A stretch of 64,000 nucleotides of DNA, taken from positions 1,227 to 65,226 of IMG/VR virus record IMGVR_UViG_3300017447_000001, one strand, 5' to 3'. Both the position numbers and the translations under genes were made by a program. Positions 4,097 through 46,301 of this stretch are shown in pieces (within the stretch, counting starts at the first letter, position 1; every line of letters begins with the position of its first letter). This DNA is from a virus. The notes beneath the pieces were generated by a model. It searched no databases, had not been told where the DNA came from, and saw nothing but the letters and a program-made list of their open reading frames with translations.

Positions 4097-6101
4097 GAAC
4101 GAGTTTAACATAGCGAGAGAGAGGTTTGAGCAGGAACGCACGATAGGGGAGCTATTGGTTAAACTTCCTAAAGTGCCTGCGTTCACCAATATAGCCAACC
4201 ATGACCTACCAGTAAAACAACAACGTTTCAAGTACTCAGCGCCACACAACTCTCGTGAAGAACCCACGGAAGAATTTATGTTGCAAGAGTATCAGCGGAT
4301 GGTGAATGGCTATTGGTTCTTCAACAACGGAAATATAGAATACATTACTGGCGCACACTACTTTATTTTAAACTATTGGACAGATAGGGGTAAGAGGCTG
4401 TTGTTTGTTGATGCGCAAAGAGATGTATTCTTATGGTGGAAAGCGGTAGAGGATAACATTAACCTTTCAGGCGGAAATTTAATCACGAATCGAAGGTTCG
4501 GTAAAACCGTAATTTCTACAGGAATAGGATATTATCGCACAACCACGCGGTCAGATAGCAAGTGTGGCATCCAATCAAAAACAAATAAAGACGGCGATGG
4601 CGTGTTTAAAAAAACGGTTGCATCATGGATGAGATTGCCAGACTGGTTAAAGCCTCTTGATACAGGCGAGACACGTCCTGCGACAATACTGGAGTTCTTT
4701 CCCCCACGCAAGCGTTCTGCCAACCAGGGTAAAAAGATTTACGATCAAGCACTATACTCCTCGATAGATTATCGACCATCCGTGGAAGAGGCGTATGATG
4801 GTGAAGAGCTTACCACCTACATAGAGGACGAGGTGGGCAAAACCATAGGTGTTAATACAGACACACGATACAATATCGTCAAGTACTGTTTGATGAAAGG
4901 CCCAACCATTAATGGAAAAGCGCTCCGTACCACTACTGTGGAGGATATGGAGAAAAAAGGCGGTGCCAACATGAAGAAAACATGGGATGCCAGTAAGATG
5001 GCTACCATGAACCCTGAAACGGGCAGAACCGCATCCATGTTAACCAACCTGTTTGTTCCTGCTGATTACGGTTATTTAGGCAATCACCCTAAGACCGGCG
5101 AACCATTCGTAGACGAATATGGTTATTCAAACAGAGCATTAGCCAAAGAATACATTCTTTCTGTCTGGAACAACTTGGAGGGTGATGACCTCGCCGCAGA
5201 ACAACAAAAAAACCCACTTACAGAGAAACACATTTGGCAGCTCAAAAACTTTGGAGGCACGTTCGACAACGAACTACTAGAAATTCAAAAAGACTATCTC
5301 GAAAGAAACAACGACCACGAAGAAGATAACGCTCCTAAGAACCTTGTAAGACGTGTGACATTTTATAGAGATGCAGAAGGAAAAGTTAAATGGCGAGACG
5401 ATAAAAATGGGCATTGTCAGATGGTTTGGGACTTTGATGACTCCAAGTATTCAAACAAGAACAAAAGTGGCTCTAACGGACTAAAAAGCCCCGATAACGA
5501 CGAATCGTTTGCTATTGGTGTCGATCCGGCAGCAGCAACCATCACTACAGGCAAAGAAAAGTCAAAAGCAGTGGCTTACGTATTCCGTAAAGGTGACATG
5601 AATGACCCTGAAAACAGCGGATTGATGGTGCTACGATTTGCTCCATGGCCGAGGATGCGGTTCAAAAGAGACTTTCACAAGTACGTGATGATGCTTTGCG
5701 AGTACTACGGATGTAAAGCGAATTATGAGAGCAATATTGACGATTATTACGAGGCATTTATTGAGGAAGGGTTTAAGAACTATGTCATGTGGCGCCCTAA
5801 GTGTACGATTGACCCACAGCGCAAGAATGCTAAGTACAAGTACGGAACACCATCGAACGATGCTTTTGCGTTACAGAAACAAACAGACATTGCTGATGAG
5901 TATATCAAAACACGATACCATAAAATTTACTTTATAGAGGCAGTAGATTCATTTATCAAGTACGATCCTGACGATAGAACCAAGTCCGATGATGCCATAG
6001 CCTTTATGATGGCGTTAATTGGAGGTACGGACAGAAAAATGGATGTTAAACCCAACACCAGTAAGCTTAGTATTTTGAGGGTGTTTAAAAGAAGTGCATA
6101 A
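4089..6101 (+). CDS. terL: Terminase large subunit
   Basis: Walker A ITNRRFGKT, Walker B YIEDEVGK, nuclease motifs FAIGVDP and SDDAIAF; position before portal. Confidence 0.92.
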   Translation: MNRNEFNIARERFEQERTIGELLVKLPKVPAFTNIANHDLPVKQQRFKYSAPHNSREEPTEEFMLQEYQRMVNGYWFFNNGNIEYITGAHYFILNYWTDRGKRLLFVDAQRDVFLWWKAVEDNINLSGGNLITNRRFGKTVISTGIGYYRTTTRSDSKCGIQSKTNKDGDGVFKKTVASWMRLPDWLKPLDTGETRPATILEFFPPRKRSANQGKKIYDQALYSSIDYRPSVEEAYDGEELTTYIEDEVGKTIGVNTDTRYNIVKYCLMKGPTINGKALRTTTVEDMEKKGGANMKKTWDASKMATMNPETGRTASMLTNLFVPADYGYLGNHPKTGEPFVDEYGYSNRALAKEYILSVWNNLEGDDLAAEQQKNPLTEKHIWQLKNFGGTFDNELLEIQKDYLERNNDHEEDNAPKNLVRRVTFYRDAEGKVKWRDDKNGHCQMVWDFDDSKYSNKNKSGSNGLKSPDNDESFAIGVDPAAATITTGKEKSKAVAYVFRKGDMNDPENSGLMVLRFAPWPRMRFKRDFHKYVMMLCEYYGCKANYESNIDDYYEAFIEEGFKNYVMWRPKCTIDPQRKNAKYKYGTPSNDAFALQKQTDIADEYIKTRYHKIYFIEAVDSFIKYDPDDRTKSDDAIAFMMALIGGTDRKMDVKPNTSKLSILRVFKRSA

Positions 6102-43359: not shown

Positions 43360-43614
43360 TTAGATGGGCTGCAATTGTCTATCTTTAAGAACTTTTTGAC
43401 GAACCGCCTTCGATATTTTTTGCAATTCCACTTTTGTCTTGCTTGCCCAAACTGGATCTTTTAGGCCCCTTTGTATTAAAACATACGCGGTAAGCCCTTT
43501 GTTAATCCTGGTAACCTGAAGTAAGGCTAATCTAGAAGCCACGGCAAAATGTCCGCTTTTCTCTTTTCCAGTCATTAGCCTAACATAAGGCATGTATTTT
43601 TTATGCTCTTTCAT
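43360..43614 (-). CDS. Hypothetical protein
   Basis: 84 aa ORF. Confidence 0.5.
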   Translation of the reverse strand: MKEHKKYMPYVRLMTGKEKSGHFAVASRLALLQVTRINKGLTAYVLIQRGLKDPVWASKTKVELQKISKAVRQKVLKDRQLQPI

Positions 43615-43644: not shown

Positions 43645-44286
43645 TTAAACTGTTGGGGGTGAATACGGCACTTCTTCGAGTAACCTGTAAGCAACCATGC
43701 CATTCATATCAAATGGTAAAAAGTGCTGTACAAATGGGTTCGAACAATAGAAAGCAGGATAATAAAAGTATGAGCTGTTGTGCGCCATCCTTTTTGTTAT
43801 GTACCATCCGTCAACCGTTGGAGCACCTTCACTCACCGGCACCCACCTATTAGCTTCTACTAATGCCTGGTTAGAGGTTTGGAGTTCAGCGTATGCCTCC
43901 AATAACGTTTGCTTAGATTGATTTAATTCGACTATTGATGCATGATACTTCTCAACCAAATCGCACAGATTACGCCGGATTGTATTCTGACCTTCAATTA
44001 GGTTTATATTGCGTTCATTCTCTGCCTTCAATCGCTCTACCTCCCCCTGTAGATGGGATAGGTGGGCCTGTTGGTGGACCGCTTGTTGAGCCGATGCTTC
44101 ATGCCCAATCAAATAACCATGCCTTTTACTGTATTGAATATATTGGTCAATATCTGACATGTTATCATTGACTGGGAAAAGCCGTTCGGCTGCCTCTGTA
44201 GCGGTTTCTTGCTCTCCGAACACTTCGGGACAGGCTACTAGGTTCGGCTGCTCCTGCGCCTCTGCCTGTTGTTTTGGGTTGCTCAA
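43645..44286 (-). CDS. Coiled-coil protein with C-terminal DUF551-like domain; TTG start lies in the TnpB element end
   Basis: RWVPVSEGAPTVDGWY pattern; begins TTG-AGC-AAC-CCA. Confidence 0.65.
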   Translation of the reverse strand: MSNPKQQAEAQEQPNLVACPEVFGEQETATEAAERLFPVNDNMSDIDQYIQYSKRHGYLIGHEASAQQAVHQQAHLSHLQGEVERLKAENERNINLIEGQNTIRRNLCDLVEKYHASIVELNQSKQTLLEAYAELQTSNQALVEANRWVPVSEGAPTVDGWYITKRMAHNSSYFYYPAFYCSNPFVQHFLPFDMNGMVAYRLLEEVPYSPPTV

Positions 44287-44415
44287 AACTTTAATGTTTA
44301 AAGATTAATAAATCTGTTAATTTTTAATTCTTGCTTCATCGACAGGCTGAGTTAGCGAACTAACTGAACTCCCATCTCCACAAGCTTGACTTCCCGTAGT
44401 CTTTACGGTAGGGCT
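44277..44415 (-). ncRNA. Predicted TnpB omega-RNA scaffold overlapping the tnpB 3' end
   Basis: Hairpins CCGTA-AAGAC-TACGG (44394-44408) and AGTTAG-TTCG-CTAACT (44350-44365), then GTCGATGAAGCAAGAA and element end GTTTTGAGCAACC. Confidence 0.65.
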
Positions 44416-45489
44416 GTAATTAGCCAAGTTTATTGCTGCGTTTAAGTCCCTGTCGATAGAAAACCCACAAGCATCGCAGTTGTACATTCTTTCGGATAGT
44501 TTTAAATCTTTCTTTTTGTTGCCACACATAGAGCATAGCTTTGAACTAGGAAAAAATCTATCAGCTATAATAACCTCTTTACCCTGCCATTCGGCCTTGT
44601 ACTTAATTTGTCTAAAACCTTCAGCTATACCTACATCACTTAGCGCCAGAGAAAGGCTCCTGTTCTTAATCATATTAGCTACGCTTAGCCCTTCTATGAC
44701 TATTTTATCGGCCTTGTTAACTATACTTGTTGTGGCGCAATGTAAGGCGTGACTTCTAACGCAGGATATGCGGTAATGTAGCTTTGATAGCTTTATCTTT
44801 GCTTTCTCTCTATTGTTGGAATCTTTTTTCTTTCGAGCCAGCGACTTGTTTGCTCTTCTTAGTTTCTTGAGGTTTACTCTTAAAGATCTAGGGTTATTGT
44901 AAACACTACCATCAGATGTTACAAACATTGATTTTATACCAGCATCCACACCTATAACAACTTGGTTCTCGTTATTTACAGACATGTCTGTTTCACTGGT
45001 TTCAACATTTATGATGGCAAACCATTTGTCGGATATGCGCTTAACTTTTACTGAATTTACCCTTCCAACAAACCTCAAGTTTTCAGCACACTTTACTTTG
45101 CCTACTTTAGGTATGTGTATGCGATAATCCTTTTGCCAGTAAGCTTCTTTGTTCTCGACTGCTACAAAGCTGTCTCTTACTCCTTTCTTTTTAAACTTTG
45201 GGTATTTTGTGCCTAGCTTCCACATGGATTTATATGCTTTTTCCAAATTGTGAATAGCATATTGAGGCGCAGTTTTGCTGACTTCCATGTAAAATGGCAT
45301 CTCACTTCTTTTGATTGAATTTTGAAGCTTAATAAGGCTGTAAGCGCTAGGTTTATCTCCCAACTTGTGCAACTCTTGCCATTTTGATAAAGCCCAGTTA
45401 TAACTATGCCGCGCCACGCCACAAGACTTTTTAAAAAGCACTTCTTGCTTGAACGTAGGATACAATCGTATAACATGGGTTTTTATCAT
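44317..45489 (-). CDS. tnpB: TnpB RNA-guided endonuclease, catalytic triad intact
   Basis: N-terminal IRLYPT...GVARHSYNWAL; RuvC-I GVDAG, RuvC-II VIEGL, Zn finger CSMC/CDAC, RuvC-III DRDLNAAINL. Confidence 0.95.
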   Translation of the reverse strand: MIKTHVIRLYPTFKQEVLFKKSCGVARHSYNWALSKWQELHKLGDKPSAYSLIKLQNSIKRSEMPFYMEVSKTAPQYAIHNLEKAYKSMWKLGTKYPKFKKKGVRDSFVAVENKEAYWQKDYRIHIPKVGKVKCAENLRFVGRVNSVKVKRISDKWFAIINVETSETDMSVNNENQVVIGVDAGIKSMFVTSDGSVYNNPRSLRVNLKKLRRANKSLARKKKDSNNREKAKIKLSKLHYRISCVRSHALHCATTSIVNKADKIVIEGLSVANMIKNRSLSLALSDVGIAEGFRQIKYKAEWQGKEVIIADRFFPSSKLCSMCGNKKKDLKLSERMYNCDACGFSIDRDLNAAINLANYSPTVKTTGSQACGDGSSVSSLTQPVDEARIKN

Positions 45490-45522
45490 TGCTTGGTTTC
45501 TAGTGTTTAAAAATTCGGTTGC

Positions 45523-45789
45523 TCATGGGGTGTGGGGTATGTAGATTTCGTTTAAAAATCGCTTTAGGTATTTGCTATCAACAGGATTTGCGCCTTGCAA
45601 AATACACTTATGATACAAGTGCTTTGCAATGTCGTAATGTGGTTGAAACTTGCCTTTTTTGTTAGAGTAATGGCAACGCTTAATACCTAACTTTTCGGCA
45701 AAGTGATGCAACTCTTCGATTGTGCTGCCTACCATATGGCTATACATACCTTTGCCAGGGTATGATTTTGGGTGGTCAATCAAAATCAT
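45523..45789 (-). CDS. DUF4031-like protein
   Basis: HMVGSTIEELHHFAEKLG...PHYDI pattern. Confidence 0.75.
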   Translation of the reverse strand: MILIDHPKSYPGKGMYSHMVGSTIEELHHFAEKLGIKRCHYSNKKGKFQPHYDIAKHLYHKCILQGANPVDSKYLKRFLNEIYIPHTP

Positions 45790-46301
45790 GCTTTCTCCTT
45801 TCTAAGTTTATCCAACTCTGCCTGTGTTTCGGCAAGTTGTTGGGTGAGGGTGGCGGCAGCAGCATTCCACCCTTTAATACAGGCCTCTCTTAAAACAGCG
45901 TTAGCATCAAAATCACCACTTAAATCGTCATCGCCAGGAATATTAATAATTGCAGCCGGGTATTCACTGAATGCAAACCGCTCGCTCTCCCCCTCCACGC
46001 TTTGCGGTTCAGGTTCAGGCACGGGTTCAAGGGCGACGAGGGGTATGGTCCCTTTCCCCGAACAGATTTGACAATTTACTTTATGCCCATACTTCCTACG
46101 GATATTACCCGAACCAAAACAGTTCCAACAGGCTATCACCCTATCCCCTACTTTAAATACGGGTGTATCTAGGGGCGCGCGTTGGTACATTTGTATTGGA
46201 CCACCATCACAGTAAGGGTAGGCGGTCTCTTTCCACAGCTTCCGCTGCTCTTCCGGTAGTTTACCCCAATCTTCGGGGGTGATAAGTTCTTGTGCGGTCA
46301 T
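45786..46301 (-). CDS. Protein with DnaJ-type CxxCxGxG zinc finger
   Basis: CWNCFGSG and CQICSGKG. Confidence 0.65.
   Translation of the reverse strand: MTAQELITPEDWGKLPEEQRKLWKETAYPYCDGGPIQMYQRAPLDTPVFKVGDRVIACWNCFGSGNIRRKYGHKVNCQICSGKGTIPLVALEPVPEPEPQSVEGESERFAFSEYPAAIINIPGDDDLSGDFDANAVLREACIKGWNAAAATLTQQLAETQAELDKLRKEKA

Follow-up and report, generated by a model that had tools for sequence, protein, structure and literature searches.

A tnpB element inserted between two phage genes raises the question of which DNA its guide RNA would address, and of what would keep the nuclease from cutting the genome that carries it. The element lies in a 64,000-nt stretch of DNA (positions 1,227 to 65,226 of the IMG/VR record IMGVR_UViG_3300017447_000001), which is called the window here and covers the greater part of a virus record of 73,224 bp that has direct terminal repeats. 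The minus strand carries every gene near the element, and the features of the locus are listed in Table 1.

Table 1. Features of the tnpB element and its flanks (window coordinates).
Feature	Position	Strand	Remarks
Displaced downstream ORF, 213 aa, orphan	43645..44286	-	TTG start now
Predicted guide template, equal to the target in the empty allele	44264..44283	-	16-nt core 44283..44268; downstream codons 2-7
Right-end terminus, TEM-like TTTTG	44284..44288	-	TTG 44286..44284 is the start codon of the displaced gene
Predicted omega-RNA scaffold	about 44284..44451	-	Overlaps the tnpB 3′ end, reaches the right-end terminus
Scaffold hairpin AGUUAG-UUCG-CUAACU	44350..44365	-	UUCG loop; in consensus fold
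Scaffold hairpin CCGUA/UACGG	44394..44408	-	Covaries across relatives and X2 variant
tnpB ORF, 390 aa, intact RuvC triad and zinc ribbon	44317..45489	-	Pfam, ISDra2 alignment
27-nt spacer, left repeat to tnpB ATG	45490..45516	-	Canonical relatives have no spacer
Left junction	45517..45526	-	Original ATG 45526..45524 (putative TAM side), AGCAACC copy 45523..45517
Upstream phage gene, DUF4031, 88 aa	45523..45789	-	Stop TGA 45525..45523

A tnpB gene between two phage genes

The protein has the domain architecture of the IS200/IS605-family TnpB proteins (HTH, OrfB_IS605 RuvC and zinc-ribbon TNB), with matches to the Pfam domains HTH_OrfB_IS605, OrfB_IS605 and Cas12f1-like_TNB at E values from 1e-12 to 8e-24. 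Residues 3-357 align with the solved ISDra2 TnpB of Deinococcus radiodurans (E 7e-54; PDB 8EXA, 8BF8, 8H1J; PMC8612924), which has the same catalytic residues and zinc ribbon. An intact RuvC triad had been noted from the sequence at first reading, and the alignment bears this out, with D182, E266 and D348 corresponding to the catalytic D191, E278 and D361 of ISDra2. The triad and the zinc-ribbon cysteines C319, C322, C338 and C341 are invariant in 35 relatives. The gene is present as a single copy in the phage genome. In the other assemblies of the same phage tnpB is called from an internal ATG as a 327-aa protein (window 44984-45489), which omits the N-terminal HTH domain that the 390-aa reading has.

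The complete 73-kb phage record contains no match to the Y1 TnpA model PF01797, in a search whose positive controls worked, and no match to PF00239, the model for serine-recombinase TnpA. A Y1 TnpA may be supplied in trans by the host.

The stop codon of the upstream DUF4031 gene shares bases with the ATG at which the next gene originally began (ATGA, 45526..45523), and deletion of the 1240 bases between the two copies of TGAGCAACC brings back this ordinary stop/start overlap. No homologue of the displaced downstream ORF was found in IMG/VR or among 5.8 billion proteins, and comparison with 1.84 billion representatives likewise gave no homologue, with a single weak match of 37 bits. Exact-protein look-ups recovered this ORF from three assemblies only, all of the same phage.

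Run X1 contains the same contig, and X2, a second phyllosphere run, contains fragments of a mosaic relative of the phage. In this relative 180 other bases take the place of the region of an 84-aa gene (window 43360-43614), and the sequence upstream of the DUF4031 gene is different (window 45790-45861). The neighbourhood of the element is thus variable between related phages. Besides these fragments, X2 contains a related element in another context. The GenBank phage collection has no near match to the window locus or to the related loci L172 and L176 described below; its distant matches, in Staphylococcus, Bacillus and Clostridium phages, cover the conserved tnpB core only.

The right end and the predicted guide

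Three independent comparisons place the right end at 44284. The family alignment is conserved up to an A/T-rich tail that reads ...AACTTG or ...GTTTTG (...YTTG), and the sequences are unrelated beyond it. The closest relative, L004 (71% amino acid identity), stays identical to the window as far as ...TAAAGTTTTG, beyond which the two are unrelated. A contig from X2 that is 87% identical matches 44617..44283 and then diverges. The right end is therefore the G of the TTG, with an uncertainty of 2 nt in either direction because TG is common to ATG and TTG.

From 44283 downward the predicted guide reads AGCAACCCAAAACAAC..., followed by (AGGC), again give or take 2 nt. It matches the window at its own right junction only, and the predicted target in the empty allele is AGCAACCCAAAACAACAGGC. 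The sequence-only reading had the flank CAAAACAACAGGCAGAGGCG follow the end of the element; that sequence is present at 44276..44257, as was said, but it starts 7 nt beyond the end determined here. The same reading had also considered a guide that starts at or near TGAGCAACC, with CCCCA(TG) before it in the empty allele, and this agrees with the comparative data to within 2 nt.

The omega-RNA scaffold is conserved by compensatory changes

We aligned the last 166 nt of the element in the window with those of eight relatives (L004, L007, L170, L172, L173, L176, L090 and L091), whose proteins are 55-71% identical. The consensus fold of the nine elements has 24 pairs, and compensatory changes were found at 14 of them. 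Both hairpins recognised earlier from the sequence, the one with the UUCG loop included, are part of this fold. In the X2 variant (87% identical) A44404>G and U44398>C occur together, so that the CCGUA/UACGG pairing is kept. The single-sequence fold of the scaffold is unremarkable (z = -1.2), and the support for the scaffold is thus comparative and not thermodynamic. A scan of the region around the element found no Rfam family at E <= 1, the TnpB RNA models of Rfam included. The scaffold occurs once in the window.

The predicted RNA is structured, overlaps the 3′ end of tnpB, ends at the right boundary and continues into the flank as guide, which are the features of an omega-RNA. In ISDra2 the guide RNA extends from the tnpB 3′ end through the right end and includes about 16 nt of the flank (Karvelis 2021, PMC8612924). 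The layout in the window is alike, but the phage genome has no TnpA partner. Judged from the sequence, the transposase-less IS605-family tnpB element with its omega-RNA is real, and the stretch singled out by the sequence-only reading (44257-44415) probably contains the guide template and the right-end terminus, preceded by the 3′ portion of the omega-RNA scaffold.

A real element might still be a fixed and idle passenger, with TnpB and omega-RNA intact owing to a recent arrival and no empty allele in circulation. The three assemblies are all filled and are identical at this locus, and the phage has no TnpA that could make empty sites. Furthermore, an insertion-free allele of this phage is absent from the collections searched, namely IMG/VR, the protein sets and the runs X1 and X2, where the search covered contigs only and rare alleles would be hidden. 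On the other hand, the lineage is large, its catalytic residues are invariant and its RNA pairs are kept by compensation. Within the coding part, most differences of the X2 variant are spaced 3 nt apart, as purifying selection and not decay would leave them. We therefore regard an idle passenger as unlikely, though it is the alternative that survives best.

Elements of the lineage are inserted at start codons

The lineage comprises over 100 proteins with 55-71% identity to the TnpB of the window. Members with at least 55% identity were found only on phage-like contigs, and a scan of 185,579 representative prokaryote genomes gave nothing above 44% identity. In canonical relatives the left end lies 0 nt outside the ORF. 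The left and right ends of the window element are similar over 15 nt (87%), which is not above shuffled controls. Elements of this lineage sit on a start codon, and the sequences indicate that the canonical tnpB is read from the ATG of the host gene. At the other end, the terminal TTG opens the sole long downstream frame in all eight informative loci (59 to over 999 codons), and gene callers use the TTG start in several of them.

The exact insertion point can be read at L176, where the displaced gene codes for a helicase of 1500 amino acids. Homologous helicases all start with ME(E/D), and three loci without the element (L258, L259 and L260) encode helicases that are 88-90% identical to that of L176. 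The empty sites of these three read stop, a few bases, ATG GAA GAA. The filled site of L176 reads stop, AA, ATG, then ATT AAA (codons 2 and 3 of TnpB), and after the element end AACTTG it continues with GAA GAG. This is a precise insertion at the border between ATG and codon 2, after A, AT or ATG, without duplication. The canonical tnpB thus has no start codon beyond that of the host, and the element gives back a TTG. L176, a related element, is the only one for which a presence/absence polymorphism at the exact start-codon junction is shown.

One member of the lineage, L263, is intergenic and lies after an ATG that starts nothing (L263:2676-2725). Two codons after its terminal TTG comes a stop, and the following gene has retained an ATG of its own, 44 nt further on. 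This argues that the ATG reflects the specificity of the element and is not only a product of selection.

Two relatives show additional sequence next to tnpB. In L004 a small ORF for a ribbon-helix-helix protein (Arc/NikA-like; L004:3860-4003) lies directly 5′ of tnpB with a TAATG overlap. It matches the Arc accessory gene lately described for IS605 elements. The ATG of this ORF follows a TAnnTTTG-type motif and may be a hijacked host start. In L007 (L007:3943-4000) the sequence ATGATTAAATAA is located between the upstream gene and tnpB and resembles a truncated tnpB start (conserved MIK...), which suggests that this site received a previous insertion or a nested one.

The 9-bp repeat and the left junction

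The layout of the window copy is less simple. As the sequence-only reading had pointed out, 9 bp are identical at both junctions, with TGAGCAACC at 45525..45517 and 44285..44277. Chance alone should produce a 9-bp repeat within 1.4 kb of sequence, and several such repeats are present there. The position is what chance does not explain (roughly 2e-4 by our own estimate), with one copy at the ATG of the interrupted gene and the other at the right-end terminus. The repeat is best described as two shared bases (TG) plus a 7-nt duplication of the start of the target. A second ATG, after the 27-nt spacer, starts tnpB in the window copy. The spacer is possibly flank carried over from a donor. It was also compared with the L004-like Arc/RHH gene as a possible remnant, and the identity (14/27) was no better than that of unrelated pairs.

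L172 has the same geometry. On its left the host TAATG is followed by five target bases and then by the ATG of tnpB, and on its right ACTTG is followed by the same five bases. The duplications thus measure 7 nt in the window and 5 nt in L172. The cut distance of ISDra2 TnpB is reportedly 15-21 nt, and both duplications are shorter. Repeats in L170 (10 nt), L090 (8 nt) and L007 (9 nt) were rejected as chance, as they lie off the junctions or inside upstream genes.

Among more distant viral TnpB loci, flanking repeats of at least 12 nt (12-17 nt) are enriched, with five cases in 164 loci and one in 492 mismatched pairs. One of the five, L141, is an ordinary end hairpin, and in L002, L184 and L219 a right-end boundary cannot be set. 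In L002, which encodes a 43%-identical viral TnpB, the cassette is flanked by a 13-bp exact repeat (L002:2960-3003 and 4200-4245) and by a second, diverged version of the ATG with its ribosome-binding region, so that in effect the downstream 5′ leader is duplicated.

Insertion 3′ of the target motif without duplication is seen in L176 and is absent from the window copy. The 7-nt duplication and the 27-nt spacer show that the window copy does not result from a simple precise insertion, and since L176 is clean, canonical insertion cannot give the layout of the window and L172. The direct repeats of 7-9 bp around the window element and L172 could be taken for target-site duplications left by a staggered-cut (DDE-type) transposition. 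We consider this very improbable, because L176 was inserted without duplication, as its empty-site relatives show, and because the repeat length varies (7+2 and 5+2 nt), with two of the bases merely common to ATG and TTG. Moreover, the element has neither terminal inverted repeats nor a DDE gene, IS200/IS605 elements make no target-site duplications, and the phage lacks the two TnpA types searched. What remains is a junction scar that is unexplained by canonical transposition.

A single base may separate self from non-self

IS605 elements recognise a transposon-adjacent motif in the flank (TAM) and carry a similar, non-identical motif at their own right end (TEM; 10.1101/2023.03.14.532601). 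The nuclease cuts the TAM followed by the flank, which is the empty site (Meers et al., 10.1101/2023.03.14.532601). The reconstructed empty allele of the phage would read ...CCCC ATG plus target; at the filled right junction the target is preceded by ...GTTT TTG. Throughout the lineage nnATG is found on the left side and nYTTG at the right end, so that the consistent difference between the predicted TAM and TEM is A versus T.

The filled allele would be spared because its target follows TTTTG and not CCATG, the deciding base being the A or T at the third position ahead of the target. The left junction has the ATG and would be spared for another reason, as it matches only 7 nt of the guide exactly (10 of 11 if one mismatch is allowed). 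To our knowledge, a 7-nt guide match is too short for cleavage by the known TnpBs. Plausibly, then, the one base by which ATG differs from TTG stops self-cutting, although such a one-base difference may be leaky. The TAM is predicted from the junctions. An ATG is required by any tnpB in any case, and what supports it independently as the TAM comes from the empty sites related to L176, from the host ATGs at the duplicated junctions of the window and L172, and from the intergenic L263.

The neighbouring gene has its first codons within the guide, and phage-encoded TldR proteins exist. The protein might accordingly be a domesticated TldR-like regulator that binds the start of the downstream gene without cutting. 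TldR-like proteins are recognised by an inactivated RuvC, while here the lineage keeps both the triad and the zinc ribbon intact and without variation, and the target in the phage's own genome is preceded by the element's own motif and not by the flank motif. We therefore give even less credence to such a regulator than to a DDE-type duplication.

The least probable of the readings weighed is one that arises when this locus is considered by itself, where the 9-bp identity at both junctions permits a right end that includes TGAGCAACC and a boundary after AACC, with the guide CAAAACAACAGG..., a TAM of ...AACC and a right junction that is a self-target needing suppression; the homology of L004, of the X2 contig and of the whole family ends at the TTG, 7 nt earlier, and AGCAACC supplies codons 2-3 of the downstream ORF in frame. 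With the boundary 7 nt before AACC, no suppression of cleavage beyond the known kind of TAM/TEM difference is needed, and the second way out once proposed, that cleavage is otherwise suppressed, becomes superfluous. The predicted ATG motif, in front of a guide that starts behind the TTG, thus largely dissolves the self-targeting puzzle.

A possible origin of the scar in RNA-guided homing

A ribonucleoprotein with the guide AGCAACCCAAAACAAC would cut wherever this sequence is preceded by ...ATG, as in the insertion-free allele. The break would then either be mended by recombination with a filled genome, which copies the element across (homing), or lead to destruction of the rival genome. Such homing or exclusion of sibling phages would follow from the known behaviour of TnpB and of phage homing endonucleases.

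The scar at the left junction could be a footprint of this process. The empty allele would be cut by the RNA-guided TnpB, and the right break end would copy the element from a donor whose homology includes the downstream gene and leaves out the upstream region. DNA synthesis would overrun into the flank of the donor, which would add the extra ATG with or without the 27 nt, and the product would be joined non-homologously to the left break end, which still has the ATG and a few target bases. A template switch in replication would leave the same scar as break repair. We propose only tentatively, and with less than even confidence, that this is a phage-restricted lineage with an ATG flank motif and a single-base distinction of self from non-self, and that the scars of the window and L172 are repair footprints of RNA-guided cuts.

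Candidate targets in other genomes were looked for by an exact scan of IMG/VR with ATG and the first 16 target bases, which gave two matches. One lies inside an unrelated gene and is best read as chance. The other (22 nt, ATG plus 19; L262:9583-9604) lies in a sugar dehydratase gene of an unrelated contig and is probably chance as well; formally it is a perfect off-genome target. No empty site of L172 was found in IMG/VR. The empty sites of the L176 relatives have 2-6 mismatches to the L176 guide and are thus not necessarily cut. The two changes that both relatives share are synonymous, and the changes in the target could be escape or plain divergence.

The last three bases of the predicted scaffold are the start codon of the downstream gene, and the guide covers its codons 2-7. 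A transcript that is processed or bound as guide therefore cannot also initiate the downstream gene, and formation of the ribonucleoprotein on a polycistronic transcript would compete with translation of that gene.

Relation to known systems and implications

The lineage shows the known TAM/TEM principle in an apparently unusual form, in which a start codon serves as the flank motif and a TTG as the end of the element. Where ISDra2 has the flank motif TTGAT, the predicted motif here is ...ATG; the lineage also differs from ISDra2 in that it has essentially no left end, uses a host start codon and lives in phage genomes. The ISGst elements of Geobacillus, IS605 elements as well, follow the same logic, with cutting of TAM and right flank and protection of the filled site by the TEM (10.1101/2023.03.14.532601). 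Their two motifs differ at a few positions, whereas the predicted difference in the window is a single base. In the 'cut-and-copy' cycle of ISGst, excision by TnpA makes the empty site and the sister chromosome repairs it (10.1101/2023.03.14.532601). The window phage lacks a TnpA, so that only another phage genome could provide the empty site.

This resembles the free-standing homing endonucleases of T4-like phages (PMC13565253; intronless homing, marker exclusion), which are likewise nuclease genes between two intact genes, and like them the window element would be expected to cut the allele without itself in a co-infection. The T4-like enzymes recognise their target by protein, and self-protection comes from divergence of the target; in the window, recognition would be by a flank-templated guide RNA and self-protection by the change of motif. 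TnpB-only IS200/IS605 elements have also been described in lytic phages, namely ISCaje1-3 of the virulent Campylobacter phages CP220 and CPt10, whose reported target is ATTTT and whose insertion sites differ between sister phages (PMC2853527). That paper describes no hijack of start codons, unlike what is seen in the window lineage.

Homing by TnpB has so far been demonstrated as a retention device that relies on empty sites made by TnpA within one cell. If the ATG motif, the start-restoring end and the break-repair scars hold, the lineage would represent an RNA-guided nuclease for homing or competition between viruses, and naturally occurring sequences would then attest that TnpB by itself, with no TnpA, moves elements from one mosaic phage genome to another. 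The lineage would also offer a compact nuclease with an unusually short, ATG-type predicted motif. Each insertion would take the translation start of a gene for tnpB and give back a weaker one. Such a lineage would also make it understandable how cassettes of this kind persist in compact lytic genomes almost free of cost. A built-in conflict is predicted from the layout, in which one and the same transcript region would act as guide RNA or else start the translation of the next gene.
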